The notes under the pieces are model-generated. The model was not told the DNA's origin. It ran no database searches and was given only the letters and a program-made list of their open reading frames with translations. A program made the position numbers and the translations under genes. This document shows, piece after piece, positions 34,024 through 61,534 of a stretch of 64,000 nucleotides of DNA (positions are counted from its first letter, which is position 1; the number at the start of each line of letters is the position of its first letter). The DNA is from a virus, in IMG/VR virus record IMGVR_UViG_3300028833_000003; one strand, given 5' to 3'.

Positions 34024-34077
34024 CAAATAACCGCGCGTATGTTATAATTGAGCCATCAAATGAAGGAGGTCATGCAG

Positions 34078-34287: not shown

Positions 34288-34351
34288 AAAGTATTGACAA
34301 ATCCTAAAACCCGTGCTATAATAAAAACATCAAATGAAGGGAGCCACAACA

Positions 34352-34522: not shown

Positions 34523-34569
34523 TCAAACGTGTGCTATAATTAAACTATCAAATGAGGGAGGGCAAGGCA

Positions 34570-34794
34570 ATGAAGTTTTGGAAGAAAGAAAACAAAAAGG
34601 AAGAGGGATACAAAATTGCTTTTTGTGACACGCCTGATCTTTCAACTAAGTTTGGTGAATGGAAAGGAACTTTTGATAGTTATTCTTCGGCCGACCATTG
34701 CATCAGAATGGGATGGGGAAAAGCTATCAAATCAAAAGCAACTGACGCATACGAAATTGATAGTGCATGGCTTGTTATCGAAAAAATTTCTTGA
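34570..34794 (+). CDS. hypothetical early protein (74 aa)
   Basis: Promoter -35 at 34512, GGGAGGG RBS, ATG 34570. Confidence 0.7.
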   Translation: MKFWKKENKKEEGYKIAFCDTPDLSTKFGEWKGTFDSYSSADHCIRMGWGKAIKSKATDAYEIDSAWLVIEKIS

Positions 34795-34892
34795 AAATTT
34801 TTTCAAAAAAGGATTGACAAACCCACCAGACCGTGTTATAATAGAGACACAAAAGGGAAAGGAAAATCCCCAACACCAGAAAGGAAACTACA

Positions 34893-35111
34893 ATGACGAA
34901 GATCTACACCGTGGCTGTGATGAACCGCTTTGAGAATGACCACACTGAAACCAAGTATTTCACCACCAAAGAAAAAGCCATCAAGTATGCGGAAAAGATC
35001 AACGCCAAATACGAAGAAGCAAGAGCTAACAAAAATTATTTCGAGATGGTCTATCATGTGGCGATGGACTGGGGCATCAAAGAGGTTATGGCCGATGAAG
35101 AAGAGGAATAA
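34893..35111 (+). CDS. hypothetical early protein (72 aa)
   Basis: Promoter -35 at 34814, AAAGGAAA RBS-like, ATG 34893. Confidence 0.7.
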   Translation: MTKIYTVAVMNRFENDHTETKYFTTKEKAIKYAEKINAKYEEARANKNYFEMVYHVAMDWGIKEVMADEEEE

Positions 35112-35197
35112 AAATCCTCTTCTTTTTTTCAAAAACCTATTGACAAATCCCGAAACGTATGTTATAATTAAGCCATCAAATGAAGGAGGACGAAACG

Positions 35198-35350
35198 ATG
35201 ATGAAGGTTTATCTGGTCTGGTATTTCAACCCTGAGGTGAGCGAAAATCAGGCGATGCTGTGGGGACTTTACACCACGAAAGAGAAGGCCGAGAAAGCGC
35301 TGACTGAGTGCGGATTTCATGGATGGATTAATGAAGAGGTCGCGGAGTAA
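35198..35350 (+). CDS. hypothetical early protein (50 aa, below ORF-track cutoff)
   Basis: Promoter -35 at 35140, GAAGGAGG RBS, ATG 35198, TAA 35348; followed by GC hairpins. Confidence 0.6.
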   Translation: MMKVYLVWYFNPEVSENQAMLWGLYTTKEKAEKALTECGFHGWINEEVAE

Positions 35351-35371
35351 TCCGCGGCCCTTTGCTTTGGG

Positions 35372-35399
35372 CCGGTCGCGCGCGGGCGTGCGCGACCGG
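35372..35399 (+). terminator. GC-rich hairpin (GCGCGC-core class)
   Basis: 9-bp stem CCGGTCGCG/CGCGACCGG, 10-nt loop, at the end of the 33.2-35.35 kb gene block. Confidence 0.5.
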
Positions 35400-35404
35400 A
35401 GTTG

Positions 35405-35650
35405 GCCTGCGTAATAGTCTTGTAATAATTTTGTAACAAATTCGTAACACTTTTGTAACAAAATTGTAATCCCGAAATTGTTACGAAAGTATTAAATTTT
35501 TATTACAAAAATTTAATACTTTTTTAATAATATTTAATAATTATAAGAAAAGAATAAAAAATCGTGGAAAAATGCGATTTAACATAATCTTAATACTTTT
35601 GTAACACTTTTGTAACAAAAAAAGTGATTTTGTAACACTTTTTTAACAAA
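35405..35650. repeat. iteron array 1: repeated (T/C)GTAA(C/T)A / TGTTAC motifs in AT-rich non-coding DNA
   Basis: At least 10 copies, e.g. TTTTGTAACA at 35429, 35451, 35596, 35607, 35627; shares a ~45-nt block (CCCGAAATTGTTACGAAAGTATTAAATTTTTATTACAAA) with 46586-46629. Confidence 0.8.
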
Positions 35651-35734
35651 AAACGCTTGACAAGTGCCCGTGTAGGGTGTATAATGAAGTCACAAAAGAG
35701 GTCAAGGACAGACCGAAAAACCAGAAGGGGCAAA

Positions 35735-36241
35735 ATGATGATGAACCGGAATTACAATCCCGCGTGCGCGATGAACAGCCTGTCTTATATGGTTACCAAA
35801 TACCACAAGCTCTCCGCGTCTCACATTTACTTCTTCGGTTTTGAGTTTAACGGCGCTGTTTATGCCTACACCAGCAAGAACCTGCCCCGTAAAGTCCTCC
35901 GCACTGAAAAGGCTTCCTCTAAGAACGGCGGTTTCCGGCAAGTCAAGTTCCGCCCCACTAAGTTCTGGAAGATGGACATGATCCTCTCCGGCAAAGCTAT
36001 CAAGGTCGCTGATATGGCCGACTTTATGGCTCTTGCTCCTAAGAACAAGGGTTGCAAGTTTGAAATGTGGGTAACTGAAACCTACACCAGCGAAAAGTGG
36101 GTCAAGGATAGCGTCCGGTTTGACAAGGCTGGCGATGTGGTCATCAACGGCGAAAACGTCCAGGTCAAGTTTGAAGGCGCCGAAGTCATCAACGAACGTT
36201 CTCTCCGCAATGCTTACTATGATGCGATGGGGCTGGCCTAA
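35735..36241 (+). CDS. hypothetical early protein (168 aa)
   Basis: Promoter -35 at 35657; ATG 35735 after a purine-rich leader (ORF-track start 35657 is the promoter itself); followed by a hairpin. Confidence 0.7.
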   Translation: MMMNRNYNPACAMNSLSYMVTKYHKLSASHIYFFGFEFNGAVYAYTSKNLPRKVLRTEKASSKNGGFRQVKFRPTKFWKMDMILSGKAIKVADMADFMALAPKNKGCKFEMWVTETYTSEKWVKDSVRFDKAGDVVINGENVQVKFEGAEVINERSLRNAYYDAMGLA

Positions 36242-36332
36242 GCCCCATCCATCCCGGGCCCTATATGAAAAAAACTATTGACAAAATCCAAATTATATGA
36301 TATAATCCAAATGTACCAAGAGAAAGGAAGTA

Positions 36333-36776
36333 ATGAGAATGACAAAGGCAATTTGGTTCGATATGGATGGCACAATCGCTGACCTATATGCGGTGGATGG
36401 CTGGCTGGCTGACCTGCAAGCGGAAAATACAAGGCCCTATGATGAAGCGAAAGTGATGCACAATATGGCAAGGCTGGCGCGATTGCTGAACACTTTACAG
36501 CGCAATGGCTACACCATCGGCATTATCAGCTGGACCAGCAAATGCGGTTCTGACCTCTACAATGGCGCGGTCGCTCTGTCAAAACTCTGCTGGCTGAACA
36601 AACACTTGCACAGTGTCCAGTGGGATGAAATCAAGATTGTAAAGTATGGCACTAACAAGCGTGAAACCTGCGGAGATGGTATCTTGTTTGATGATGAAGA
36701 AGGAAACCGCAAGGCATGGGGCGAAAATGCTTATACACCTGACAAGATTTGGGAAGTGCTGACTGCTCTGCGGTGA
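36333..36776 (+). CDS. HAD-superfamily phosphatase, 5'(3')-deoxyribonucleotidase-like (147 aa)
   Basis: Promoter -35 at 36278; WFDMDGTIADL is HAD motif I (DxDxT); later ILFDDEEGN; start at ATG 36333 or 36339. Confidence 0.65.
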   Translation: MRMTKAIWFDMDGTIADLYAVDGWLADLQAENTRPYDEAKVMHNMARLARLLNTLQRNGYTIGIISWTSKCGSDLYNGAVALSKLCWLNKHLHSVQWDEIKIVKYGTNKRETCGDGILFDDEEGNRKAWGENAYTPDKIWEVLTALR

Positions 36777-37157
36777 AGCACTCCCAAACCCGGGCGCGAA
36801 AAAAAATTTTTAAAAACCTATTGACAAAATCGCAATCATGCCTTATAATAATAACTGTCAAGAGGACGAGGGCGCGTCCCTGAGAGAAAAAAATCTCTTC
36901 AAACCCTCTTGACAAACCCTCAAAAGTATGGTACAATGAACAAGACGAAAGGGGATGAGCCAAATGGTCTAAGCAAGCGTGGTGTGGGTGTGGGATGAGA
37001 AGCCCAACACAACAAGACCGCAAAAGTTCTCAAAAAAAGTTTCAAAAACCTCTTGACAAACCCAACCAACCATGATATAATAAAGATGTTCCAAGGGAAC
37101 AACAAAAACAAAAGGCAAGCGGATAAGCCCCACAAACCGCAGAAAGGAATTGATACT

Positions 37158-37532
37158 ATGACTACCACCATCACCAACATCTCTGCTCTGAACACTGCTA
37201 TCGAAACTCTGACCGCTGTCGAAGGTATGGAAGAGGTTGTAACCAAGCTGACCAACATCAAGGCTTCTTATGAGAAGCGTGCGTCTGCGGAGCGCAAGCC
37301 CACCAAGGCGCAGATTGCCAAGAAGGAAGAGAACGCCGCTTTTGCGGAGGAAGTCTTTGAAGCAATCAAGGAAACTCCTGCGACTGCCAAGGCTCTGGCT
37401 GAGCGGTTCGCTGTCACTCCGCAGAAGATGACTTCTGCTCTGGTCGCTCTGCGCAAGGCTGGGCGCATCAATGACAAGGAACAGGAAAAGAAGTCCTGGC
37501 CTCACATCTGGCAGGTGGCTGTGGGCGCGTAA
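37158..37532 (+). CDS. paralog family A member 1: helical N-terminus, basic KPTKAQ linker, winged-helix-like C-terminus (124 aa)
   Basis: ATG 37158 after AGAAAGGAATTGATACT leader; three stacked promoters upstream (36821, 36909, 37053); paralogous to 38452, 42897, 44509, 55953. Confidence 0.75.
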   Translation: MTTTITNISALNTAIETLTAVEGMEEVVTKLTNIKASYEKRASAERKPTKAQIAKKEENAAFAEEVFEAIKETPATAKALAERFAVTPQKMTSALVALRKAGRINDKEQEKKSWPHIWQVAVGA

Positions 37533-37621
37533 GCGCCCCAGCCCTGGGCCCGGGCGAAAAAACTTCTTGACAAATCAATAGCAACATGATATAATAATCA
37601 TGTTGAAAGGAGCTGAACCAA

Positions 37622-38095
37622 ATGAACGCTATTCCCTCTCTTGACATTGTAAAAGAACTTGAACCGCTGACCGCTGTAGTGCGCGAGTTCGTAAAGAGCT
37701 TTGATGAAGAGTATGATGCTGTGCTTGGCCCTGGCTTCATGGCTAACATGGACGAAGATGTAGTTGTCTATTCAATCGCAATGTCTGATGCTGGCGGGCA
37801 ATCCTTCCGCGACAACTTTGTAAAGCGCTTTCCTAAGTGCGATTGTCTTTCAACCTTTGCGCTGTCTCTGTTCCATGAGGTTGGACACCTTGAAACAGAA
37901 TGGGACATGGACGATGATGTGGAATTGCGCAACAGCGACAAGATGGACGATGAAACATACTATAATTTGCACAATGAGTGGATAGCTACACAATTCGCTG
38001 GTGAATGGGCCACTTCTCATTTGGAAAAAGCAAAACAATTTGATTTGAAATTCAATGAGGTTGCCCGCGCGATTATTGGCCGACTTTTGGATTGA
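37622..38095 (+). CDS. hypothetical protein with HExxH motif (157 aa), possible small zinc metallopeptidase
   Basis: Promoter -35 at 37567, AAGGAG RBS; LFHEVGHLE motif; followed by a canonical terminator. Confidence 0.6.
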   Translation: MNAIPSLDIVKELEPLTAVVREFVKSFDEEYDAVLGPGFMANMDEDVVVYSIAMSDAGGQSFRDNFVKRFPKCDCLSTFALSLFHEVGHLETEWDMDDDVELRNSDKMDDETYYNLHNEWIATQFAGEWATSHLEKAKQFDLKFNEVARAIIGRLLD

Positions 38096-38105
38096 AAATT
38101 GAAAC

Positions 38106-38127
38106 CGCCCTTTTGTAGGGCGTTTTT
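38106..38127 (+). terminator. intrinsic terminator
   Basis: CGCCC-TTTTGTA-GGGCG followed by T5, 10 nt after TGA 38095. Confidence 0.65.
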
Positions 38128-38451
38128 CATTTTCATTTTCCCATTGCCCTCGGCCGGGCCGCGCGCGGTCGCCCAGGCTGCGTGCGGGCCGCATTTGCGC
38201 ACCAACAGGCCCAACACAAAACCAAAACCAAAATCAGCGAGCGAAAAAAATTTTAAAAAAATCCTAAAAACCTATTGACAGGCACCCCATTTGGTGATAT
38301 ACTTATATTGTTCCTGAGGGGAACAGAAACGAAAAACCAAAAATGAAATTAAAAAAAATTTCAAAATGGTCTTGACAAACTGCTCACCCTCTGGTATAAT
38401 AAAAGAGAAGAAAGGGAAGGACACCCTACAAACCAGAAAGGAATTGATACC

Positions 38452-38817
38452 ATGACTAACAAAATGACTTACTCTGATGCCCTCCGCAACGCTATCGCCA
38501 CTGTCACTGATGAAGCTACCAAGTCCCGCCTTGAAGATTTGCTGGTTTCCATTGAAAAGCGTTCCAACTCTGAGCGCAAGCCCACCAAGGCCCAGCTGGA
38601 AAAGCAGGAAGAAAACAAGGCCCTGGCTGAGGTTGTGTTCAAGGTGCTGTCTGCTCACAGGGTTGAAGCTTCTGTCGCTGAGCTGAAAAAGCTGGACGAT
38701 CAGCTTGTCGATCTGTCCTCCCCTAAGCTGACCGCTGTGCTGAAAATCCTGATCGACCAGAACAAGGTTTCTAAGGATGACAGTGGAAGGGTTGCCAAGT
38801 ACATCGCCCTTGACTAA
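38452..38817 (+). CDS. paralog family A member 2 (121 aa)
   Basis: ATG 38452 after AGAAAGGAATTGATACC leader; two stacked promoters (38275, 38372); ERKPTKAQLEKQEENKALAE shared with members 1 and 4. Confidence 0.75.
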   Translation: MTNKMTYSDALRNAIATVTDEATKSRLEDLLVSIEKRSNSERKPTKAQLEKQEENKALAEVVFKVLSAHRVEASVAELKKLDDQLVDLSSPKLTAVLKILIDQNKVSKDDSGRVAKYIALD

Positions 38818-38945
38818 CAAACAGAGGGCAGGGGAAACCCTGCCCTCCTCCCGCCCCGGGCCGAGAACCTTAAAAAAACTATTGACAAGCTGACAATCCT
38901 GTGCTATAATCTTATTGAAATCAATACGAAAGAGATGATGACAAA

Positions 38946-39521
38946 ATGACAAGAGCAGAAATTATCGCCAATAATAATTTTGAAATCGCCAAAGAAAAAT
39001 TTGAAAATGCAAGTCTGAGATGGTCTAATTATTGGTGGGAAGCTTGCGAAAAAATTTATAATGCAAGTAAAGAATGGGCAGAAAAATATATTCTTGATCC
39101 AGTAAAGCGTATTATCAAAAGAATTAAAAGAGTTTTAGGTGGCATTGATTGGAATGGTTTTGAACCCTTCCCGCATGGAGTACAGCAATTTTATTTGATT
39201 AGATTATTAAATGCCGAAGGTGAAAATGTTTGGAATAAAATCGGCACTACATCTCGAGCAACATACATTCGCATGAAAGACCATCTAAAAAACGCTGACT
39301 ATCGTAAGCATGGAGTAAAAACTATTCAAATCATCGGCCTGTGGGATTGTAAAAATGTAGACGCTGAAATTATTGAAAATCGCGTGCGCAAATATTTACG
39401 CAAAGATTACGAACAGCAATTCGTCCCAAATGATCGTTTTGAAATAGAATTTGATATTCCCTCCCTGTCTAAAATGATAGAAGAGACAATTGCATTTGAA
39501 AATAGTTTTATGTATAATTAA
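38946..39521 (+). CDS. T5orf172/GIY-YIG-superfamily-like protein (191 aa) in an AT-rich island
   Basis: Promoter -35 at 38882; FYLIRLLNAEGENVWNKIGTTSRATYIRMKDH resembles the T5orf172 core (recall); markedly more AT-rich than neighbours. Confidence 0.55.
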   Translation: MTRAEIIANNNFEIAKEKFENASLRWSNYWWEACEKIYNASKEWAEKYILDPVKRIIKRIKRVLGGIDWNGFEPFPHGVQQFYLIRLLNAEGENVWNKIGTTSRATYIRMKDHLKNADYRKHGVKTIQIIGLWDCKNVDAEIIENRVRKYLRKDYEQQFVPNDRFEIEFDIPSLSKMIEETIAFENSFMYN

Positions 39522-39584
39522 AAAAGGGATTGACAAATCCCTTCCCATGTAGTATAATAATGGTGTTGAAAGGAGCTGATAAAC

Positions 39585-39734
39585 ATGGCGAACAAGAGCA
39601 AAAGCAAAGTCAAGAATAGCTATGAAATCAACAAAGGCATTCGGCGCGATTGGGGCAACATCAACCCTGTTACAAAAATCATACCAGACAAGCGCAACAA
39701 GAAACCTAAGCACAAAAAAAATTGGGAAGAGTGA
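39585..39734 (+). CDS. small very basic protein (49 aa, below ORF-track cutoff)
   Basis: Promoter -35 at 39530, AAGGAG RBS, ATG 39585, TGA 39732. Confidence 0.55.
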   Translation: MANKSKSKVKNSYEINKGIRRDWGNINPVTKIIPDKRNKKPKHKKNWEE

Positions 39735-39805
39735 TACACACCTATTGACAAATTTAAAAAAATGTGATATAATAATTATAGAAAATCAGAAAGGAAGTGT
39801 GCGTA

Positions 39806-40255
39806 ATGGCAAAGCAACAGCGGCAACCCACTCCACCTACCAGAGAATGGATTGATGAATGGATTGACAAGTATTTGGAAGAGCATCCAAATGAAATCAT
39901 TGAAGATTTCCAAGGGCTGGAAGATCAAGCTGACTATGAGTGGTGGTGCAAAGAGATTGACGCAGGACGCCCCACACCTTACGACTTGACCAAAGAGCAA
40001 GAAAAGGAAAGCCACAAAGCAAGAGTAACGCCTGGCGGAAGTGGCAAGCCCAAGGCAAACACTGAGCGCAAGCGCAAGCCCAATGACACAAAGAGAACCA
40101 TTATCGGCTGGGTTCAAACCTTGTTTGAAGGTTTCGCTCTTAATGACAAAGTGGCTAATGTGATTGTCTCCAATGTTGAAAGGTCAATAGATTTTGAAAT
40201 GGATGGCAAGCATTATACATTGAGCCTGACAGAGCATCGCCCACCTAAAAAGTGA
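39806..40255 (+). CDS. paralog family B member 1 (149 aa)
   Basis: Promoter -35 at 39745, AAGGAAG RBS, ATG 39806; shares ...YDLTKEQEKE...HRPPK with 45008..45436. Confidence 0.7.
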   Translation: MAKQQRQPTPPTREWIDEWIDKYLEEHPNEIIEDFQGLEDQADYEWWCKEIDAGRPTPYDLTKEQEKESHKARVTPGGSGKPKANTERKRKPNDTKRTIIGWVQTLFEGFALNDKVANVIVSNVERSIDFEMDGKHYTLSLTEHRPPKK

Positions 40256-40367
40256 GCGGTGCTTTTTTTCGGCCCGGGCCAAAAATTTTTTTCGCAAACC
40301 TATTGACAAACCTCTTTCAGAGTGCTATAATAACATTGTTCCAAGGGAACAGAAAGGAAGTAAAATT

Positions 40368-40604
40368 ATGAAACCTATCAAAATTGCTGGCACTGTCTTT
40401 GATGCTGATGCACTTTCTATTGAAGCAATTGATGCGTTAATTGAAAAACTTGAAGAAGCAAAATGCACACAACGCCGCAAAAAGGCAGAAGAATACGCAG
40501 AGAAAATTCATAACTTAATTATCGAAGCAAAACAGCAAGATTTAAATGTGATGATTGACAATGAATGGATCCCTGATGATTTCAGAGTTGATGTTTATAT
40601 CTGA
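40368..40604 (+). CDS. hypothetical early protein (78 aa)
   Basis: Promoter -35 at 40303, AAGGAAG RBS; first of a five-gene AT-richer operon. Confidence 0.7.
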   Translation: MKPIKIAGTVFDADALSIEAIDALIEKLEEAKCTQRRKKAEEYAEKIHNLIIEAKQQDLNVMIDNEWIPDDFRVDVYI

Positions 40605-40639
40605 TAATACAAATAAGCAATAGAAAGGAAATAAAAGCA

Positions 40640-40855
40640 ATGTATAAAACAACTTGGATGATCACTGATGAAAGTGATGAAGGCACATTCCAGACAGAGC
40701 TGACCTTGTATCATTTTGGCAAGCGTCCCAAGTTCCCTCGCTGGTACATGGGAGAAAATCATTCTTATCAGATTGAAATGATTTGGAATTTCCATCTGAT
40801 TGTTCGCCCTTCTATTTTCTTTAAATGCCTGACCCATCAATACATTATCAGATGA
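40640..40855 (+). CDS. hypothetical early protein (71 aa)
   Basis: AAAGGAAA RBS-like 8 nt upstream of ATG. Confidence 0.55.
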   Translation: MYKTTWMITDESDEGTFQTELTLYHFGKRPKFPRWYMGENHSYQIEMIWNFHLIVRPSIFFKCLTHQYIIR

Positions 40856-40870
40856 AAGGAAGTATCCACA

Positions 40871-41155
40871 ATGAGAGACGCGAAAAAAGGAACTTATAAT
40901 GATAGTTATACTTATTGCCCTGTTAATGCGTATGGAGATTGTCCTTACTGTGACCAAAGTGATGTATGCCACATCGATGATCCTCTCAAAGATTGCGATG
41001 ACTGGGGCGCGTTTTGGGAGAGCTGGGAAGACTGGCTAAACGCTGATGATGCAAACCCTGATGCACCAGAGGATTTTGCGGAAGATGAAATCCGCTGGGC
41101 TGGTGATGTGTATGGCTATGAAGATACAATGGAGGACAACAATGAATACTTATGA
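40871..41155 (+). CDS. acidic Cys-containing hypothetical protein (94 aa)
   Basis: AAGGAAG RBS; CPVNAYGDCPYCDQSDVCH. Confidence 0.65.
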   Translation: MRDAKKGTYNDSYTYCPVNAYGDCPYCDQSDVCHIDDPLKDCDDWGAFWESWEDWLNADDANPDAPEDFAEDEIRWAGDVYGYEDTMEDNNEYL

Positions 41156-41315
41156 AATCATGATTAATTATCTTAACTATGTATTTCCAAACAGAAAATT
41201 TAGTAAAGAATATTTAGACATCCTTTACGCTATCTTTATAAAGGGATATGGCGAAGGCGAACTCGCGGGAGAAATTGAAGCAAATAAATATTGGAGCGAA
41301 AGGAAAGAAAAATAA
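41142..41315 (+). CDS. hypothetical early protein (57 aa)
   Basis: ATG 41142 behind GGAGGA, overlaps the end of the previous gene; ORF-track start 41046 is unlikely. Confidence 0.55.
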   Translation: MNTYEIMINYLNYVFPNRKFSKEYLDILYAIFIKGYGEGELAGEIEANKYWSERKEK

Positions 41316-41319
41316 ATAA

Positions 41320-41535
41320 ATGTATAATTATAATAATGACCCATTTGCGAAGGGCACACAAAAATATCAACAAGAGATAGTCGCAAAAGCATTAAATGAC
41401 CATTTGCTCAAATGTGTTAAAAATAGTTATTGGTGCGCTCATTGCTCTCTAAATCATAGTGGCATCTGCTTTTTTGCAAAAGAATGTTTTGAGAATGATC
41501 GAAAATATTATAGAGAAGATGATGAGGAGGAATAA
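41320..41535 (+). CDS. hypothetical early protein (71 aa)
   Basis: Contiguous with the previous gene; ends before CCCGGG motif and next promoter. Confidence 0.6.
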   Translation: MYNYNNDPFAKGTQKYQQEIVAKALNDHLLKCVKNSYWCAHCSLNHSGICFFAKECFENDRKYYREDDEEE

Positions 41536-41633
41536 ACTTCTCATTTTGCCCGGGCCAAAAAATTTCAAAAAAGTATTGACAAGCTGAAACAAATGCTGTA
41601 TAATAGCTATGTAATCAAGAGGAGGTAATCAAG

Positions 41634-41786
41634 ATGAAGACTTTGAAGGTGCTGGCTGTGATTGGTTGCTTACTGACTATCTGGGGTCTGGTGTGGGGTA
41701 TCTTCATCAAAGATTTCATTTGGGGTGCGTTTGTTGGTCTGGCGCTAATAATGCCTTATCTGGTTTGGGGAGATGAGGAAGAATGA
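41634..41786 (+). CDS. small membrane protein (50 aa, below ORF-track cutoff)
   Basis: Promoter -35 at 41576, GAGGAGG RBS, ATG 41634; two hydrophobic helices. Confidence 0.6.
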   Translation: MKTLKVLAVIGCLLTIWGLVWGIFIKDFIWGAFVGLALIMPYLVWGDEEE

Positions 41787-41941
41787 AAAGAAGTCTTTAC
41801 AAGCGTTATGATGATTTAGCCTGCTGGGATTTGGACAAAGGATGTAGGCGCATCATTGACCAGTCTCGACCTGGTAGGCGTCGCCTGAAAAAGGTTCTTC
41901 GGCGTCAAGCGCGCAAGCGGTTAAATCAGCGGGAAGAATAA
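41783..41941 (+). CDS. small basic protein (52 aa, below ORF-track cutoff)
   Basis: ATG 41783 overlaps the previous TGA (ATGA); Arg/Lys-rich. Confidence 0.45.
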   Translation: MKRSLYKRYDDLACWDLDKGCRRIIDQSRPGRRRLKKVLRRQARKRLNQREE

Positions 41942-42031
41942 CCGCCCGGGCGAAAAAAATTTCTAAAAAGCTATTGACAACCTATCAAGATGGTGCTATA
42001 ATAAGCATGTAATCAAGAGGAGGTAATCAAA

Positions 42032-42547
42032 ATGACTAAGAACACTTACGAAGCTCGCGCCTATAAGTTCGCCACTTTCCTTGCTCGTCTGTTTGCTGGT
42101 TGCTCTTCTCTGGAAGATTTCATGTGGGCGCTGGACTATTACAACGCTACGCACTCTCGCAAACTGCGCTGGGCGCATGGTGTTTCTCGCATTGCGATTA
42201 TCCGCTCTGACTATGTTATCAAGTTTAACATGGTGCCTGATGAAGAATGGGAAGATGGTCGCGCTGGCAACTGCGAAAGCGAAGAAGCGGTCTATGAGCG
42301 CGCCTGCGAAGATGGCTTTGAGTATCTGCTGGCTAAAACCACTGTTTGCACCATCGAAGAACACACTTTCTCTATCATGCCTCGCATTAACCATGTGAAT
42401 GATTGGACACGCGACTGGACAGAGTATTGCACTGATGAAGAATATAACTGGCTGGTGCAAAATGTGAATGACTTGCATGAAGGTAATGTGGGATACAGAA
42501 ATCGAAAAGTGTGCGTAATCGACTACGCCTGGGACGCGGAAATGTAA
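42032..42547 (+). CDS. putative atypical protein kinase-fold protein (171 aa)
   Basis: Promoter -35 at 41974, GAGGAGG RBS; order VIKFN ... NCESEEAVY ... DLHEGNVG ... VIDYAWD matches Lys / alphaC-Glu / catalytic D-x4-N / metal-binding Asp of small kinases (by eye). Confidence 0.6.
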   Translation: MTKNTYEARAYKFATFLARLFAGCSSLEDFMWALDYYNATHSRKLRWAHGVSRIAIIRSDYVIKFNMVPDEEWEDGRAGNCESEEAVYERACEDGFEYLLAKTTVCTIEEHTFSIMPRINHVNDWTRDWTEYCTDEEYNWLVQNVNDLHEGNVGYRNRKVCVIDYAWDAEM

Positions 42548-42568
42548 TCCGCGCCCTTTTGCGTTCGA

Positions 42569-42595
42569 CCGCGCGCTGCCGGATGTGGCGCGCGG
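42569..42595 (+). terminator. GC-rich hairpin (GCGCGC-core class)
   Basis: 8-bp stem CCGCGCGC/GCGCGCGG, 11-nt loop, after 42032..42547. Confidence 0.5.
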
Positions 42596-42896
42596 CATTT
42601 GCCCCACAGCATACCCCACACAATTTTCGGCGCGAAAAAAAGTTCAAAAAAAACTTCAAAAAAATTCCTAAAACCTATTGACAAGACCAGCGAAAGCGAG
42701 TATAATAATAACTGTCAGGAGGGCAAGAGAACATCCTCTCCCCTGATGGCACTGGCAAGGACGCTCTGACAAGATGCGGAAACTTCAAAAAAAAGTTTGA
42801 AAAACCCCTTGACAAAGCGCTGAAAGTGTGATACAATAAGGATGTCAAATGAAGGGGAGCTGATAAACCCCACAAACAGAGAAAGAGGTAGATACC

Positions 42897-43280
42897 ATGA
42901 TGAACACCAAGATGACTAACAAGAGCGCTCTGTCCTTTGTCCTGACCAACTGCGAAGTGCCTGCGGATGTCAAGGAGCGTCTGGAAGCGATGCTGGCTTC
43001 CCTTGAAAAGCGTTCTGAGAACGCCAAGGGCAAGGAGCGCAAGCTGTCTCCCAAGCAGGAGCAGGAGCGCAAGGAGCGTGAGGAGTTCCGCTCCAAGGTG
43101 TATGAGACTATGTGTGAGAACCTGAACTTCGAATACACCTGCAAGGGTCTGGCTGACCTGTTCGCTGTCTCTTCTCCCAAGATGGCGAACGCTCTGACCA
43201 AGCTGGTTGAAGCTGGCAAGGTTGAGCGTCTGGTTTCCACCACCAACAAGTCCAAGGTGTGGTTCAAGGTGGTAGCGTAA
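42897..43280 (+). CDS. paralog family A member 3 (127 aa)
   Basis: ATG 42897 after AGAAAGAGGTAGATACC leader; two stacked promoters (42678, 42809). Confidence 0.75.
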   Translation: MMNTKMTNKSALSFVLTNCEVPADVKERLEAMLASLEKRSENAKGKERKLSPKQEQERKEREEFRSKVYETMCENLNFEYTCKGLADLFAVSSPKMANALTKLVEAGKVERLVSTTNKSKVWFKVVA

Positions 43281-43412
43281 GCTACCACCGCCCCACCTGG
43301 GGCGCGCCGGGGCCGAAAAAAAATTTTTAAAAACCTATTGACAAAGCTTTAAAACCGCTGTATAATAAACATGTTCCAAGTGAGAACAAAAGAAAGAAAG
43401 GATTTGATAACA

Positions 43413-44069
43413 ATGGCTTCTAAGTATAATGACATTTTTGGTGATACTGAGACGCTGGGTCCGCTGGATAGCCCCATCATTTACAATGGTTACATGCATT
43501 GCAGGGAAACAGATGAAGAAGTAAATGCACTGATTAATGAATATTTCTTCAACCTTGAAAAATTCGCCACAGCGTATTATGCAAACAAGCGTCCGCAATA
43601 TTTGGACGATTTGTGGGACAGCAAAATCTTTGCTGAAAATTTTTGGGACTTCCGCAAAAAAGTGCTTGCCATGCTCAACCCCAATAAAAAGAACAGATTT
43701 TTCGCTCACAATGCGAGATTTGATGTTATGGCATTGAATAACACTTGCAGAGCGTTAAGCGATGGAAAAGTGAAATATTTCTTCCCCTATGAAGTTGAAG
43801 TTTGTGATACTCTCAAAATGGCGCGTCAAGTTGTCGCAAAAATGCCCACCTACATCAAATACTGTCAAGAGAATGGATACATGACCAAGCACAAGACGCC
43901 CAGGGTTCGCCTGACCGCTGAAATTCTTTACAGATTTATTACAAAAGATGAAGAATTTAATGAAGAGCACAGAGGGAAAGAAGATGTTCTGATCGAAGAA
44001 AAAATTTATGACTACATCAAGAGACAGCATAAAAAGTGCAATCCTGCGCTCTACGCCCGCAAGGCATGA
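43413..44069 (+). CDS. DEDDh (DnaQ-like) 3'-5' exonuclease (218 aa)
   Basis: Promoter -35 at 43338; FGDTETLG (Exo I), FFAHNARFDVMAL (Exo II), EEHRGKEDVLIE (Exo III, H-x4-D). Confidence 0.7.
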   Translation: MASKYNDIFGDTETLGPLDSPIIYNGYMHCRETDEEVNALINEYFFNLEKFATAYYANKRPQYLDDLWDSKIFAENFWDFRKKVLAMLNPNKKNRFFAHNARFDVMALNNTCRALSDGKVKYFFPYEVEVCDTLKMARQVVAKMPTYIKYCQENGYMTKHKTPRVRLTAEILYRFITKDEEFNEEHRGKEDVLIEEKIYDYIKRQHKKCNPALYARKA

Positions 44070-44508
44070 GCGCAGGCGGCCCGGGCCGAAAATTGTATAC
44101 AAAAAAAATTTCAAAAACCTATTGACAAGAACCTGAATCAGCAGTATAATATAAGTGTCCCAAGGGGCAAGGGACAGTCAAGGCCAGGTTGCCGAAAGTC
44201 AACAGAGACAATACGCATGGACTACAGAAACATTTGGCCATTAGCAAACACAATGTGCGAAAAAAGTTTGCGAAACCCCTTGACAAAGCCCACAACCTGT
44301 GGTATAATGCAAATGTAAGATAAAGGAAAGGGGAAAAATAAAAAGCCACCCCAATCCCAATGCGCAAAAATGCAAGGCTTTGCTTCCATGTGCTTCTTAC
44401 AAAGTCAAGAAATAAAAAATAAAAAAAGTTCTTGACAAACACCACAAAGCATGATATAATAAAGATGTTCCAAGAGAACAAAAGGAAAAAAAGAAAGAGG
44501 TAATGAAA

Positions 44509-44898
44509 ATGACTAACATCACCAAGAACATGAAGTACGCTGACATCCTCTCCATCCTGCATGGCGAAAATCCTGCCTATGGTTGCTCCATCGAAACTCT
44601 GACCGCTTTCATCGAACATGAAATGGAACTGACCGCGAAAAAGAACGCGGCTCCCAAGAAGCCTTCCAAGGCTCAGGTGGAGAAGCAGGAGGAGAACAAG
44701 GTTCTCGCTCAGACGCTGTTTGAAGTCCTCGCGGCTCATGGTAAGGATGTAAGCGTCGCGGAAATCAAGAAACTGGATGATCGCTTTGTGGATCTGTCCT
44801 CTCCCAAAATCACTGCGCTGTTGAAAATCCTGATGGATGAAAACCGCATGGTCAAAGATGATAGCGGAAGGGTGGCAAGGTATCAGGTTCTCGCCTGA
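44509..44898 (+). CDS. paralog family A member 4 (129 aa)
   Basis: ATG 44509 8 nt after AAAGAGG (in-frame ATG 44503 too close to RBS); three stacked promoters (44122, 44280, 44432); closest to member 2. Confidence 0.75.
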   Translation: MTNITKNMKYADILSILHGENPAYGCSIETLTAFIEHEMELTAKKNAAPKKPSKAQVEKQEENKVLAQTLFEVLAAHGKDVSVAEIKKLDDRFVDLSSPKITALLKILMDENRMVKDDSGRVARYQVLA

Positions 44899-45007
44899 TA
44901 CCTCCGCCCCTCGCGGGCCCGGGCGCGAAAAAAACATTTTCAAAAAGGTATTGACAAGCTGATTGCAAGGTGCTATAATAGAACCATCGAAAGGAGCTGA
45001 TGACAGT

Positions 45008-45436
45008 ATGACGAAGGAACAGTACATTGAACAGTATCTCGATGAGTATGAGCGCAAGCACCCTGATGAACGAATTGATTATGAAAAGTTGCGTGAGCAG
45101 GCTGACTGTGAATGGTATGACAAGCAGGTAGATGCAGGCAAGAAGACTGAATACGATTTGACCAAGGAGCAAGAGAAGGAAGCCAAGAAGGCTCGACAGT
45201 ATGCCAAGTCTGACAAGGAGCGCAAGAAGGTTGTGCGGGAGCGCAAGCCTGATGAGGACAAGCGCGAAATCATCGAAGTCATTGCACAGAATTTGAAGCG
45301 CGTTTGTACTGAGGATGACCAAATGGCAAAGGAAATCACTGTTGTAAATCCTGAGCGTGAAGTCACCTTTATTTTGCGGGGCGTTGAATACAGCGTCCAG
45401 GTTATCAAGCATAGACCGCCCAAGGCCCCTCAGTGA
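45008..45436 (+). CDS. paralog family B member 2 (142 aa)
   Basis: Promoter -35 at 44951, AAGGAG RBS, ATG 45008; paralog of 39806..40255. Confidence 0.7.
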   Translation: MTKEQYIEQYLDEYERKHPDERIDYEKLREQADCEWYDKQVDAGKKTEYDLTKEQEKEAKKARQYAKSDKERKKVVRERKPDEDKREIIEVIAQNLKRVCTEDDQMAKEITVVNPEREVTFILRGVEYSVQVIKHRPPKAPQ

Positions 45437-45540
45437 GGGGCCGCCCGGGCGAAAAAAAATTTTTAAAAAGTATTGACAAGTGCGCGAATGGATGCTATAA
45501 TAATGGTGTTCCAAGAGAGAACAGAAAGGGCTGATAAAGA

Positions 45541-45771
45541 ATGTGTGATTGTGTAGCAAGTGCAATGTTAAATGATTACGAGCGACAAGCATGGACCTTT
45601 ATCGAAAAGGGAACCCGCATCATTAAACTTTGCACAGAATTAAGACAATTAAATTGTAACAAAGAAACTGTTGATTTTGCTTTGGTGTGGTTAGAACGCT
45701 CAAAGAAAACTCCTGAGGAAATTATTCAAATGGTCAAGCTCTATCACAAAGATTTGGAGGATGAAAAATGA
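45541..45771 (+). CDS. hypothetical early protein (76 aa)
   Basis: Promoter -35 at 45473. Confidence 0.65.
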   Translation: MCDCVASAMLNDYERQAWTFIEKGTRIIKLCTELRQLNCNKETVDFALVWLERSKKTPEEIIQMVKLYHKDLEDEK

Positions 45772-45977
45772 ATATTGTGGCGCGTGGGTATAGCATTTCA
45801 CTGAACAAAGAGGAAGAAAATTTTACAAACAAGATAGTCGATTTTGTTGATAAGCTGGAAAAGGAAATCTTTGAAGCTGGTGCATTACCTCCTGATGATT
45901 TGCAAACAGTTTTTGATGCTTTAAGAGATAACGCCTGCAAGCTCAGAGACAATGAATTTTATGATGAAGGAGAATAA
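45768..45977 (+). CDS. hypothetical early protein (69 aa)
   Basis: ATGA overlap with the previous gene, GGAGGA RBS. Confidence 0.65.
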   Translation: MNIVARGYSISLNKEEENFTNKIVDFVDKLEKEIFEAGALPPDDLQTVFDALRDNACKLRDNEFYDEGE

Positions 45978-46056
45978 AAAAAGTATTGACAATCCTTCCC
46001 ACCTGTGTTATAATGAACATGTTCCAAGAGAGAACAAAAGAAAGGAAAGATAAACT

Positions 46057-46257
46057 ATGAATGAAGAGCGTTGCCCATATTGCCAATCTGAAAACTTCAT
46101 CACTGATGATTATGAAGAAGATTATGCCGAACAGGATAAAATCACCTTGTACTGGAAATGCAAATGCAACAACTGCGGTAAAGAATTTCACATCCAAGAA
46201 TGGTACAAGTTACAGCGCAAAACCATCTCGACCGCGGAACAGTGGGAGGAAGAATAA
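46057..46257 (+). CDS. zinc-ribbon protein (66 aa)
   Basis: Promoter -35 at 45986; CPYCQS...CKCNNCGKEF. Confidence 0.7.
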   Translation: MNEERCPYCQSENFITDDYEEDYAEQDKITLYWKCKCNNCGKEFHIQEWYKLQRKTISTAEQWEEE

Positions 46258-46458
46258 ATGACTATCCAGCGTCGCATTGTATTAGATGATGAAGAACAGA
46301 ACCTGATTACTCAGGTGGATGATTTGATTACTCAGGTTTATAATGAATTAGATTCCTCTGATAAGGAGGGCCTCAAAAAGATAATGGCTTTAACAAATGC
46401 GTTAGCCGATTTCGCCTATGATTATGGGTCTGATGACTATCGAAGTGGGTGCCTGTGA
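46258..46458 (+). CDS. hypothetical early protein (66 aa)
   Basis: TAAATG junction with the previous gene; last gene before the non-coding region. Confidence 0.6.
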   Translation: MTIQRRIVLDDEEQNLITQVDDLITQVYNELDSSDKEGLKKIMALTNALADFAYDYGSDDYRSGCL

Positions 46459-46480
46459 CCGCAGGCGCCCGCTTGTTTTT
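46449..46480 (+). terminator. terminator-like hairpin at end of early region
   Basis: GCCTG-TGACCG-CAGGC followed by GCCCGCTTGTTTTT. Confidence 0.45.
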
Positions 46481-46539
46481 CGCCCGGCCGAGCACCATAC
46501 GTGCGCAGGCCGCAATTTTGTCAAGACTAACCCCACACA

Positions 46540-46790
46540 ATTTTTACGCAAATTTTACGATTTTGTTACAATTCTGTTAATTTTCCCGAAACTTTTGTTA
46601 CAAAAGTATTAAATTTTTGTTACAAATTATTAAATTTTTATTAAATTTTTGTAATAATTGTAATAATTTTGTAATATTTTAAATTGTTACGAAAGTATTG
46701 CGAAATTGTTACAGATTTATTACGAAATTGTTACAAAACTTAACAAAATCGTAACATTTTTGTAACATTTGACCCACTTTTGTAAAAATT
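46540..46790. repeat. iteron array 2: TGTTAC(A/G) / (T/C)GTAA(C/T)A motifs, second copy of the array at 35.4 kb
   Basis: At least 13 copies in both orientations (e.g. TGTTACA at 46565, 46596, 46618, 46707, 46729; TGTAATA x3 at 46650-46676; GTAACA at 46751, 46763). Confidence 0.8.
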
Positions 46791-46796
46791 TGGCCC

Positions 46797-47153
46797 CATA
46801 TGCACCTGGGCGGCGCGTTCACGCGCCATATGCGCCGCGCCCACGAATTAATGCTAATGCTACACTCATATGCGCCGAAAATGCGGCATCCGCGGGCACG
46901 CAGATAATTTCCCTTAATCCATATGAAATCGCCGCGTTTTTTCTTGCGCACGATTACAGAATCGCAAGAAGCACCAATGACCCTCATATGCTCTCATTTC
47001 CTGACCACGGGCGTAGCAAAATCTTCCCCTCTCTGAGCCCATTTTAAGACAAAGGGAGCGACCCGACCGGGTTTTCCACTTATCTATTAATAACCCGACC
47101 GGTGCGCATACTTTTTTCCACACTACCGACCGGGTTTTCCATAGTCCCATATG
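46797..47153. repeat. dispersed CATATG(C) motif repeats in GC-rich non-coding DNA
   Basis: CATATG at 46797, 46827, 46867, 46920, 46985, 47148 (five followed by C), plus one in the hairpin loop at 47359. Confidence 0.6.
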
Positions 47154-47335
47154 CCTAACCCGACCGCATTCTATATATTTATTCACTTTGCTCACAATTC
47201 TTTAATAAATATACACCTACCCGACCGGGTTATACACAAAAAAGCGGGCTATCTACAATACTGTAAATAACCCGTTCCACTTTATATATGTAATTTTACT
47301 CAGATAACTCAAAGTATTGTGAATAACCCGACCGG
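47061..47335 (+). repeat. seven direct copies of (A/T)ACCCGACCGG-type motif
   Basis: Copies at 47061, 47092, 47123, 47157, 47218, 47269 (diverged), 47324; several followed by GTTTTCCA. Confidence 0.75.
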
Positions 47336-47351
47336 TCTGCACATTATTAAA

Positions 47352-47375
47352 AGGAGCCACATATGTGTGGCTCCT
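47352..47375. terminator. bidirectional terminator hairpin
   Basis: 10-bp stem AGGAGCCACA/TGTGGCTCCT, TATG loop, T-runs on both sides; directly after TAA 47379 of the minus-strand gene. Confidence 0.65.
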
Positions 47376-47378
47376 CTT

Positions 47379-61531: not shown

Positions 61532-61534
61532 CCA

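Follow-up and report, generated by a model that had tools for sequence, protein, structure and literature searches.

What two clusters of a short repeated word do at the early genes of a large bacteriophage is the question raised by this locus. The word, TTTTGTAACA, is repeated ten times in one non-coding stretch (array 1, 35,405–35,650) and twelve times in another (array 2, 46,540–46,790), mostly at one copy per DNA turn. Both lie in the 64,000-nt sequence analysed here (IMG/VR record IMGVR_UViG_3300028833_000003; hereafter the window), which is part of a large gut or rumen phage, a 169-kb TAG-recoded siphovirus and kin of phAss-1. The initial annotation called the repeats iterons, a label that presupposes a replication origin, which is one of several standing readings.

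The arrays are real and helically phased (~11 bp), and their enrichment is far above chance. Strict matches to (T/C)GTAA(C/T)A or its complement number 10 at 35,405–35,650 and 12 at 46,540–46,790, in line with the ten or more copies each first reported, while 2000 first-order Markov runs of the same AT-rich stretches gave means of 0.44 and 0.58 copies and maxima of 3 and 4. Twenty-two of the 67 strict matches in the window fall in the two arrays, i.e. in 0.8% of its length, and exact TGTAACA was found 24 times (9.2 expected), 11 of them inside the arrays. Centre-to-centre distances are mostly 11 bp, with 20–22 and 32 bp also common, which bears out the originally proposed spacing of about 10–11 or about 21 bp; a few are irregular (9, 14, 15), and there is one 99-bp gap in array 1. 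In circular statistics, the best period in array 1 was 11.1 bp (R = 0.82) and that in array 2 was 11.0 bp (R = 0.73). Taken singly, each array is only modestly significant against the 99th percentiles of its null (0.72 and 0.64, from nulls of n = 13 and 17 sites where 11 and 12 were observed), and the same period is found in both. The site itself is asymmetric and 8–9 bp long, TTT(T/C)GTAA(C/T)A, in very AT-rich surroundings full of T and A runs; TTTTGTAACAA is an example of the array repeat with T/A runs around its core. Outside the search pattern, A at +3 is present in 58 and T at −4 in 51 of 60 sites pooled from four arrays, a conservation that a defined recognition site fits better than phased T/A runs alone. 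The AT-richness noted earlier also stands: the arrays are the only two stretches of ≥200 bp with GC <22% in the window, and both are gene-free. The block of about 45 nt that they were said to share could be aligned between 35,471–35,514 and 46,586–46,629 as CCCGAAA..TTGTTACRAAAGTATTAAATTTTTRTTACAAA, with a mean column identity of 79% in a three-sequence alignment.

Each array follows a strong hairpin, as initially described, and is thereby terminator-insulated on its upstream side. Array 1 is preceded by a double GC-rich plus-strand terminator (35,338–35,399; fold −49.9 kcal/mol, z = −4.58) that closes the upstream early unit; its first hairpin spans 35,338–35,359, and its second is kept in the close strain L225. 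In the left part of array 1, six YGTAAYN sites stand exactly 11 bp apart (centres 35,413–35,468); then come TCCCGAAA, a pair of inverted sites (35,482 and 35,504) and an AT-rich spacer of ~90 bp, on the other side of which lie three exact sites (35,603, 35,614 and 35,634) and a degenerate one (TTTTAACA, centre ~35,645). Directly 3′ of the array is a perfect TTGACA-17-TATAAT plus-strand promoter (35,657–35,685), driving an ORF of 168 aa with no family match (35,735–36,241) and then a HAD-type 5′-nucleotidase (36,333–36,776). Positional orthologues of array 1 are found upstream of the same 168-aa/HAD-nucleotidase unit in L225, L089 and L032. In our reading of the sequences, the last degenerate site is centred 12 bp upstream of the −35 hexamer, and the identical register is seen in L089; it is absent in the close strain L225.

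Array 2 lies at the junction of the early block and a convergent TAG-recoded operon, beyond an intrinsic plus-strand terminator (46,443–46,474; 14-bp stem and T-run, −26.2 kcal/mol, z = −3.5) that ends the block. In addition to its 12 strict YGTAAYA copies it contains degenerate sites and the TCCCGAAA..GTTACAAAAGTATTAAATTTTTGTTACAAA block common to array 1, its orientation blocks alternate, and its left part is near-identical in contigs from other samples, with one SNP, located within a site. No convincing rightward promoter was found at array 2, and the leftward, putatively functional promoter-like elements at its left edge (46,505–46,580, minus strand) are imperfect in the window: TTGACA at 46,514–46,509 has TATGGT at 19-nt spacing as its best −10 candidate, and a second element reads TTAACA-17-TAAAAT (46,580–46,552). 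The word TTGTCAAG also marks the left edge of the L089 and L082 arrays, where the leftward promoters match better. A non-coding hub of ~900 bp (46,475–47,378) contains array 2 together with two further repeat families. The second (46,793–46,995) is CATATGC(G/A)CC, at 46,797, 46,827 and 46,867 with degenerate copies at ~46,920 and ~46,985, and CATATG-type repeats recur in the hubs of the relatives L202 and L201. The third (47,060–47,340) comprises six to seven copies of ACCCGACCGG(G/T), a position occupied by CCGATCGG palindromes in L203 and L201. Two of the three hub matches to a relaxed DnaA box (TTWTNCACA) come directly after a third-family copy and the remaining one is nearby; the relatives' hubs have no DnaA-box-like cluster. 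What is conserved in the hub is a core of CCGAYCGG and CATATG families; the number of sites in its GTTAM cluster ranges from 2 to 12.

The genes enclosed by the arrays look early: their promoters are perfect and of sigma-70 type, their ORFs are small, and they use the standard genetic code. In the late genes on the minus strand (1–31,082), by contrast, TAG must be read as a sense codon. This upholds one part of the proposal that the arrays bracket an early block. However, the promoter-dense, standard-code block of host-takeover type spans 31,145 to 46,474 on the plus strand, so that array 1 is situated 4.3 kb inside it and the two arrays do not bracket the whole. The block contains ~34 small ORFs and 31 perfect TTGACA-17-TATAAT promoters at a GC content of ~45% (vs ~33% in the flanks). 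The promoters are stereotyped cassettes, made up of GCCCGGGC, an A/T-tract UP-like element (of A7-T5-A5 type upstream of every early promoter), the promoter and a conserved 5′UTR. Upstream of array 1 is a unit of very small ORFs, and at the array begins a stretch of larger ORFs, several of which have DNA- or nucleotide-metabolism-like matches. Another type of array in the window, TTTTGAAAT repeated six times, lies upstream of a different promoter.

The layout, whose absence from syntenic relatives had been named as grounds for doubt, recurs in two other genomes: in each, a large array precedes a promoter-dense early block, and 10–13 kb further downstream there is a smaller one of the same word. 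Among 77 loci from relatives, 38 have non-coding arrays. Almost all of these are on the side of the early block, often 10–130 bp upstream of an early-type promoter and often with motifs unrelated to that of the window. The close strain L225 has 24 sites, with 17 of 23 spacings exactly 11 bp (R = 0.85 vs a null maximum of 0.64), and the interior of array 1 has been rebuilt between close strains with word and phase retained. In more distant genomes, arrays at orthologous positions are built of GTTAC (L089) or GTTAA (L032, L206, L068), and phasing at 10.8–11.4 bp is significant in L089, L206 and L068. Distant arrays within a genome use one word, as observed in the window, in L089 and L082, and in the merged L202+L032 (14,502, 15,914 and hub). 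A word that is constant within a genome and different between genomes is the expected look of sites for a trans-acting, lineage-specific protein. Some relatives carry clear dyad operator arrays instead: ATGTTTCA-N3-TGAAACAT occurs about six times in L029, and L073 has six copies of TTGTTAA-N4-TTAACAA plus an N6 variant. In L008, three arrays are packed into 2.7 kb, and both that were read sit between a terminator and a promoter; together with the rebuilt interior of array 1, this order fits an operator or boundary at least as well as an origin.

We suggest, with a probability of roughly 40%, that the arrays are cooperative sites for a putative lineage-specific phage protein that would mark and control early transcription units. 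Arrays of this type are familiar, and these look like docking sites at early-gene edges. Candidate binders exist, given at least four small winged-helix paralogs encoded in the early block, with a fifth paralog and a tandem winged-helix protein (49,233–49,904, minus strand) nearby, although no binding protein for the arrays was singled out by the analysis and the small paralogs were not detected in L089+L082 or L008, both of which carry GTTAC arrays. The tandem winged-helix gene belongs to the leftward operon ending at the hub, and is found next to the hub in L201, L202 and L203 as well. Its product has weak HTH_36 and LexA-DNA-binding-domain matches, an AlphaFold model of pLDDT 85.7 and weak tandem winged-helix matches in the PDB by Foldseek (best whole-length TM-score 0.39, to RepE54), making it a candidate hub/array binder or replication initiator. 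Several observations limit the proposal of early-unit control. Arrays of 12–24 sites far exceed ordinary operators; they cannot be a general early shut-off device, because only one of the 31 perfect promoters in the window has one; and promoter adjacency is weak evidence, since every non-coding gap in the early block precedes a promoter.

The main rival of this early-transcription reading is a replication origin, which we consider possible but, on balance, unlikely. On this view a phage initiator would use the arrays as iterons, beside easily melted AT-rich DNA, with array 2 and the hub as the main origin next to the initiator gene and array 1 as a second origin or a copy-control cluster. The arrays are indeed the two most AT-rich places in the window, the site clusters of array 1 flank its ~90-bp AT-rich spacer, the conserved hub is located just 3′ of the operon with the tandem winged-helix protein (RepE54 as best match, along with weak HTH_36 and DnaD-like ones), half of the window's six TTWTNCACA matches lie within 213 bp of the hub, and the leftward promoter-like elements bordering the arrays might serve to prime or activate initiation. 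However, the RepE match is weak (E = 0.023) and other tandem winged-helix proteins score alike, the DnaA-box-like cluster is missing from the relatives' hubs, whose conserved core is not the GTTAM cluster, and the neighbourhood of the arrays yielded no recognisable helicase, primase or polymerase. In the close strain, further sites stand where array 1 has its AT-rich spacer, an exchange that would be strange in a defined unwinding element, and the three closely placed arrays of L008 also speak against origins.

In phage SPP1, gp38 binds two origins ~13 kb apart, each of which has direct repeats plus an AT-rich element for unwinding (PMC6316719). Like SPP1 with its oriL and oriR, the window has two similar non-coding or AT-rich elements, 11 kb apart, in one phage, the SPP1 host being Gram-positive; unlike SPP1, homologues of gp38, gp39 and gp40 were not recognised here, and in place of a few longer boxes there are 10–24 short sites with an 11-bp phase and a fast strain-to-strain turnover. 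In plasmids F and P1, iteron sets flank the rep genes and second sets are used for handcuffing; classical iterons measure 17–22 bp at ~22-bp spacing, and their Rep proteins are of the tandem winged-helix type (F RepE, P1 RepA, R6K pi). The locus shares with such origins its helically phased repeats, AT-rich region, DnaA-box-like sequences and a tandem winged-helix gene beside the hub, and its two clusters could likewise pair. Unlike classical iterons, however, the window's sites are 8–9 bp long with an 11-bp spacing, the candidate gene lies beyond the segment that the arrays bracket and its Rep-like match is weak.

It is improbable that the arrays act as curved, UP-like DNA with no dedicated protein, in which phased T/A runs bend the DNA to stimulate or insulate adjacent promoters and the common GTAAC core simply records how an 11-bp unit was duplicated in tandem, with gene conversion from one array to another. 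The A7-T5-A5 type elements, the T-runs flanking the site consensus and the fast gain and loss of units, which fits slippage, are all consistent with this, as is phAss-1, which in the analogous place has about ten A5-tracts at 10–11-bp spacing with no fixed core word, so that curvature alone may suffice. Phased A-tract DNA and UP elements stand upstream of strong early promoters of Gram-positive phages (e.g. SP82/SPO1), and the locus shares with these and with the phAss-1 array its AT-rich DNA with T or A runs, phased at 10–11 bp and immediately 5′ of a consensus sigma-A-type promoter. However, the G, T, A, A and A(+3) positions are essentially invariant over the 60 sites, which occur in both orientations, and some relatives have unmistakable dyad operators. 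Unlike A-tract or UP DNA, the arrays have an orientation-defined core word, common to arrays 11 kb apart in one genome and swapped between lineages, and array 2 has no strong promoter to stimulate.

Equally little credence can be given to centromere-like or positioning sites, where a ribbon-helix-helix or TubR-like winged-helix dimer would coat the 11-bp repeats into a superhelical complex, by which phage genomes would be segregated or positioned with the help of a motor or scaffold, e.g. in a carrier or plasmid-like state. The parC site of plasmid R1 has two sets of five 11-bp iterons flanking a promoter, with one ParR dimer per iteron and intrinsic curvature, and the ParR complex, besides repressing the promoter, assembles into a higher-order structure (PMC2241845). 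The arrays match R1 parC in their 11-bp phasing, their many copies and their curved AT-rich DNA, and the site clusters of array 1 beside a promoter form a comparable layout. Copy number differs between close strains, the lineage-specific words are what incompatibility-type diversification predicts, genomes have multiple arrays (in pB171, two arrays, parC1 and parC2, flank the par operon), TubR is among the structural matches of the small winged-helix paralogs, and one relative, IMGVR_UViG_2703719118_000001, looks like it has an isolate-genome identifier. Against this, no ParA, ParM or TubZ-type NTPase was found in the window, and there is no par-like operon, with genes of parR/parM type, downstream of the arrays. 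They are 11 kb apart and not within 160 bp as in R1, their carrier is an apparently virulent 169-kb phage and not a plasmid (it has a takeover block and its own sigma-like factor, with no integrase seen in the window), and all genome-collection matches are metagenome bins, none of them isolate plasmids.

The takeover modules of SPO1 and T5 are located in terminal repeats, the SRL/SRR repeat arrays of T7 flank its terminal repeat, and the injection-stop region of T5 is repeat-rich. Like these, the arrays are short repeats of poorly defined function at the edges of early-gene DNA that might enter first, and the 10.8-kb block between them resembles the SPO1 and T5 modules in size, small genes and dense strong promoters. 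Several large relatives' contigs end 35–200 bp upstream of the sigma-like gene, hinting at a physical end near the early-block start, and in other samples there are nine short contigs that stop within array 2 or immediately ahead of it. That the block is a terminally redundant, first-injected takeover segment with the arrays as boundary, packaging or injection-stop signals is nevertheless very improbable: unlike in T7 and T5, the contig breaks examined give no sign of terminal redundancy or physical ends at the arrays, those at array 2 being scattered (46,513 to 46,773), as low coverage of AT-rich DNA predicts, while a 1,972-bp contig runs unbroken through array 1, early promoters also lie to its left, and L008 has its three arrays close together.

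Under the preferred reading, of cooperative sites that control early transcription units, a small DNA-binding protein specified by this phage lineage would bind the arrays cooperatively, at about one unit per turn and on one face of the helix, to give a nucleoprotein filament of 250–300 bp. Array 1 would be the large primary array between the double terminator and the promoter of the 168-aa/HAD-nucleotidase unit, and the protein bound there could both gate the promoter at 35,657 and keep transcription of the preceding unit, with its very small ORFs, from reading through. Array 2 would be auxiliary, stopping read-through at the convergent operon and controlling the leftward promoter-like elements. 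It may also pair with array 1 via protein–protein contacts, looping out the 11-kb block for a coordinated shut-off. In this phage lineage, filaments of this kind would mark and control the boundaries of early transcription units.

The two site arrays described in the initial annotation are real: array 1 (35,405-35,650) and array 2 (46,540-46,790) contain 10 and 12 copies, respectively, of the word YGTAAYA [(T/C)GTAA(C/T)A or its complement] where a Markov-1 model expects 0.44 and 0.58, and together they account for 22 of the 67 matches in the window. Distances between sites are mostly 11 bp, with 20-22 and 32 bp also common and a few irregular values, and the best-fit period of 11.1 bp in array 1 and 11.0 bp in array 2 agrees with the helical phasing claimed there. 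The arrays are also the sole stretches of the window of ≥200 bp with a GC content of <22%, and, as first described, a block of ~45 nt is common to both and each is preceded by a strong hairpin. When 60 sites from four arrays were pooled (consensus TTT(T/C)GTAA(C/T)A(A)TTT), positions beyond the search pattern proved to be conserved as well and the orientation of sites to be real; the core G-T-A-A-(C/T)-A hardly varies, and phased T-runs flank every site. These are short, defined sites placed one helical turn apart, with the same word used in distant arrays of a single genome. A gap of 12 bp separates the end of array 1 from the -35 hexamer of the promoter at 35,657, and on the 3' side of the array follow genes for a 168-aa protein without a family match and a HAD-type nucleotidase. 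Array 2 bears array 1's word 11 kb away, and no strong promoter was found at it. The window has four copies of an 8-mer, TCCCGAAA, one per array inside the shared block (35,470-35,477 and 46,584-46,591) and two in the spacers of early promoters (32,521 and 35,148), and this 8-mer or CCCGAAA adjoins arrays with other motifs in six loci of relatives (L032, L073, L035, L029, L202, and L201).

The window sequence is identical to part of the 168,974-bp ENA contig ERZ27257202:k141_292341 (contig position = 70,534 - x for any window position x), and its source is a tailed phage. Its late genes (1-31,082, minus strand), assigned with PHROGs, include those for terminase-like, portal, and virion proteins, a 4,552-aa ORF, and a sigma-factor-like protein. 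Late and early genes differ in genetic code: the former make long ORFs only with TAG as a sense codon, without which the 4,552-aa ORF (1,383-15,041, minus strand) is not open, and the early block follows the standard code. The window encodes eight tRNAs (61,459-63,571), among them no TAG suppressor, and such a tRNA must therefore be encoded elsewhere in the 169-kb genome; an Rfam search returned nothing besides tRNAs. By its portal protein, the nearest named relative is phAss-1 (40% identity), a 136-kb TAG-recoded gut siphovirus, followed by large siphoviruses of Firmicutes, with an unannotated 12-kb faecal record being closer (56% identity). Eubacteriales were proposed as hosts in the description of phAss-1, where repeats and promoters go unmentioned (PMC10607447). 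In IMG/VR, 133 relatives of the sigma-like protein were found, all at ≤62% identity and on contigs as long as 200 kb. A megablast search with window positions 35,000-39,000 gave no match among deposited phages, and a scan of genome collections matched only metagenome bins of inconsistent taxonomy and hence indicated neither host nor lifestyle. Five contigs of relatives (L004, L053, L056, L062, and L028), of which three measure 74-116 kb, stop just 35-320 bp upstream of the gene for the sigma-like protein, far more commonly than expected by chance; these ends may represent a physical genome end at the late/early junction or an assembly break at strain-variable early genes.

The early block (31,145-46,474, plus strand) consists of ~34 small standard-code ORFs and has a GC content of ~45%, compared to ~33% in its flanks. 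It contains an exceptionally dense run of consensus promoters, with 31 perfect 12/12 matches to TTGACA-17-TATAAT in 14 kb (31,793-46,014, plus strand), most of them with a TG extension, and we know of no denser run of perfect consensus promoters. These belong to a near-identical cassette, in which GCCCGGGC is often followed by an upstream element of the A7-T5-A5 type, the promoter, and a conserved 5'UTR carrying a GTTCC-AAG-GGAAC hairpin. The small standard-code ORFs and the 31 perfect plus-strand promoters uphold the assignment of the enclosed genes as early. That the arrays bracket an early gene block holds for one side only: array 2 lies just past the final terminator, but array 1 lies 4.3 kb inside the larger block. 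A second promoter class, with TTGATT or TTGACT, an almost pure A/T spacer, and then TATAATATAT, is present at 48,957-48,985 (minus strand), 50,304-50,332, and 50,543-50,571 (both plus strand), as well as in the relatives L202 (~8,440-8,470) and phAss-1 (~37,925-37,955). It is unlike the early TTGACAA cassettes, whose spacers are GC-rich, and may be a middle class. The first of these promoters lies in a further repeat-rich intergenic region (48,921-49,232), which carries six copies of TTTTGAAAT upstream of it, a perfect hairpin with a 16-bp stem containing TATAAT (49,104-49,138), and three direct repeats GGTAGAT(T)nACCCA.

Relatives show what is kept and what is replaced. In the close strain L225, the left edge and terminator of array 1 are shared with the window, and 24 sites extend over 300 bp, with more sites in place of the AT-rich spacer of the window's array 1. 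Seventeen of the 23 spacings are exactly 11 bp (circular phasing statistic R=0.85, null maximum 0.64). Because L225 keeps the 11-bp sites but rebuilds the interior, word and phase are maintained between strains while the layout turns over. The contig IMGVR_UViG_2703719118_000001 (L089 and L082 joined) has a 200-bp GTTAC array with a 10.8-bp phase (R=0.95), directly upstream of a TTGAC-17-TATAAT promoter, whose -35 hexamer is in the 12-bp register also seen in the window, and ahead of genes homologous to those for the window's 168-aa and HAD proteins. A hub 10.3 kb downstream combines a small GTTAC cluster with other repeats. On the left of this array, the early segment that starts from the sigma-like gene (joined-sequence positions ~5,000-9,200) has the opposite orientation to that in the window, so that the array stands between divergent early promoters; this points to an inversion that had one of its breakpoints at the array. 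In contig 3300031760_000018 (L202 and L032 merged), the order is sigma-like gene, first operon, terminator, a ten-copy TGTTAA array, and a promoter-dense block; 1.3 kb into this block comes a second TGTTAA cluster, of five copies, and 12.8 kb from the first array there is a hub in which three GTGTTAA sites accompany TCCCGAAA and CATATG repeats. Sites next to a promoter together with a distant cluster of the same word are found in both of these contigs as well, each with its own word. GTTAA arrays with phasing near 11 bp are also present in L206 and L068, and L008 has three arrays within 2.7 kb, two of which were read, each between a terminator and a promoter.

In the relatives' loci, the window's own word formed no clusters, and their arrays were found by a motif-free scan for 6-mer clusters. 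At least one non-coding array is present in 38 of the 77 loci of ≥12 kb, nearly always on the side of the early block, and the array words of other relatives are unrelated, including clear dyads; the word is thus replaced between relatives. Locus L073 carries six TTGTTAA-N4-TTAACAA dyads and one N6 variant in a 500-bp non-coding early-region stretch (7,264-7,741). This dyad equals the operator consensus of the clostridial redox repressor Rex, a match seen only in L073; it may link the phage to the redox state of its host, or be a coincidence. The window's own word and spacing fit none of the host-factor boxes considered (Rex, CcpA cre, Zur/PerR, and AgrA-type). In L029 (8,308-8,568), ~6 dyads ATGTTTCA-N3-TGAAACAT lie upstream of an early promoter, interspersed with GTGTCAC..GTGACA dyads; the half-sites of the former resemble chromosomal parS, apart from an additional spacer base. 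In L035, an 800-bp non-coding array adjoining the sigma-like gene (8,643-9,475) has 26 exact copies of CTAAAG/CTTTAG along with numerous TTAAAG and GTAAAG variants, both orientations being represented. The AT-rich stretches of L023 and L025 proved to be coding. Matches to the generic pattern TTGTAACANNNTTGTAACA in IMG/VR were mostly on unrelated contigs, including L112, which has the pattern at both ends and terminal inverted repeats; members of the group were only L082/L089, L137, and L179. Exact-pattern scans of IMG/VR with the array-1 terminator and the hub repeat found no close relatives, and one metagenome scan yielded two short contigs without arrays.

The sites are probably recognised by a putative lineage-specific trans-acting protein that would coat one face of the DNA. 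We suggest, with a probability of roughly 40%, that the arrays control and insulate the boundaries of early transcription units, possibly with pairing between the two arrays. We favour this reading because every array that was read has a terminator on one side and a promoter on the other, several of them can stand in a row (L008), a different array, the six copies of TTTTGAAAT, precedes another promoter in this genome, close strains differ in the interior layout, and leftward promoter-like elements are found at array edges in three cases across the window and its relatives. As in an operator array, sites beside a promoter are accompanied by a distant cluster of the same sites in the same genome. 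The interpretation in the initial annotation is supported in part: phased, putatively protein-binding arrays flank early genes, with an origin, partition, or looping as candidate roles.

The main rival, that the arrays are replication origins, we regard as less likely. The arrays have the repeats of an iteron origin (10 and 12 sites, ~11-bp phase, GC <22% over 250 bp), their AT content is extreme, and they resemble oriL and oriR of phage SPP1. Array 2 belongs to a non-coding hub (46,475-47,378) with two further repeat families within 46,793-47,340: CATATGC(G/A)CC, in 3-5 copies, and ACCCGACCGG(G/T), in 6-7 copies, with TTWTNCACA words beside or near some of them. Three of the six window matches to TTWTNCACA, a relaxed DnaA box, lie in a 213-bp stretch inside the hub (47,114-47,326). 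This local cluster would favour an origin, but no such cluster was found in the hubs of L201, L202, L203, L082, and L137, and the DnaA-box idea was set aside for this lack of conservation. At its right the hub adjoins the 3' end of a TAG-recoded operon that runs leftward (50,211 to 47,379) and encodes a tandem winged-helix protein, 2.5 kb from array 2, and a position next to this operon is kept in relatives: in L201, L202, and L203, hubs with CCGATCGG and CATATG repeats lie downstream of the tandem winged-helix gene, with two or three GTTAM (GTTAC or GTTAA) sites in L201 and L202 and none noted in L203. A gene of this kind beside the hub would suit an origin, but Foldseek gave only weak tandem winged-helix matches, the best over the whole length being RepE54 (TM 0.39, E=0.023), and no link was found between this protein and the GTAACA word.

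Candidates for the binding protein are this tandem winged-helix protein and five paralogs of ~125 aa, four encoded in the early block (37,158-37,532, 38,452-38,817, 42,897-43,280, and 44,503-44,898) and the fifth outside it (55,953-56,342). They combine an N-terminal helical part, a basic linker of the ERKPTK type, and a C-terminal domain predicted to be a canonical winged helix; the model (pLDDT 84) matched ArsR/SmtB, BlaI/MecI, PadR, and TubR in Foldseek, and the number of DNA-binding paralogs is similar to that of repeat families in the window. They could not be tied to GTAACA, because they were not detected in the loaded parts of L089+L082 and L008, both of which have GTTAC arrays, and no covariation of a candidate regulator with the array word was established. 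With the two candidate DNA-binding proteins as queries, no useful match was obtained among PDB sequences, and of ~45 window proteins compared with Pfam and PHROG none was recognised as a ribbon-helix-helix protein, partition ATPase, helicase, primase, or polymerase. The lack of a partition NTPase (ParM, ParA, or TubZ) among the searched proteins of the window, 64 of the 169 kb, bears on the idea that the arrays are centromeres. Their repeat geometry matches that of parC of plasmid R1, but no par operon was found in the window, array 1 not being upstream of recognised genes for a centromere binder and an NTPase, and we consider a partition role improbable.

Pure DNA curvature is about as improbable. 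The phased T-runs flanking the sites would produce it, and phAss-1 has a pure A-tract form, with ~ten A5-tracts spaced 10-11 bp apart, without a fixed core, before its first early promoter; they lie in a 1.4-kb unannotated gap (123.4-124.9 kb), after ~400 nt of GC-normal, structured-looking sequence, possibly an RNA, and a pyrimidine-rich run. Against this stand the nearly invariant core of the window's sites and the lack of a strong promoter at array 2. Least likely of all are terminal-repeat, packaging, or injection-stop signals: nine short, independently assembled contigs from other samples (L259-L267) carrying the gene at 46,258-46,458 all stop 55-315 bp past it, either inside array 2 or shortly before it, but their ends are scattered, and one contig spans array 1. 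One of the nine has a G-to-A change inside a site (GTTAC to ATTAC).

A more far-reaching version of boundary control, for which we see only a slim chance, is that the arrays are loading or boundary sites for a phage DNA-coating protein, making the takeover block an insulated, chromatin-like domain that is later silenced. Filaments could nucleate on primary and auxiliary arrays after takeover and then pair or spread; the ~30 super-strong sigma-A promoters between the arrays could thereby be silenced and RNA polymerase freed for the phage sigma factor; and the words (GTAAC, GTTAA, and unrelated dyads) could diversify so that co-infecting relatives cannot silence each other. If true, this would be a lineage-specific "domain switch" of a kind not described for phages.

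Arrays of helically phased repeats are well known as cis-acting elements of origins, centromeres, and operator arrays, and the kind of element is therefore not new. What is new is its setting, a large uncultivated group of TAG-recoded gut and rumen phages with Clostridia-type hosts, its association with a very dense run of perfect promoters, which the arrays flank, and an architecture that relatives retain while exchanging the recognition word. To our knowledge, this group has no cultured member and nothing of this sort has been described in it. Should the binding protein be found, it would provide a handle on the timing or shut-off of the early takeover genes, or on the start of replication, and the relatives would offer a natural set of orthogonal protein-DNA recognition pairs.
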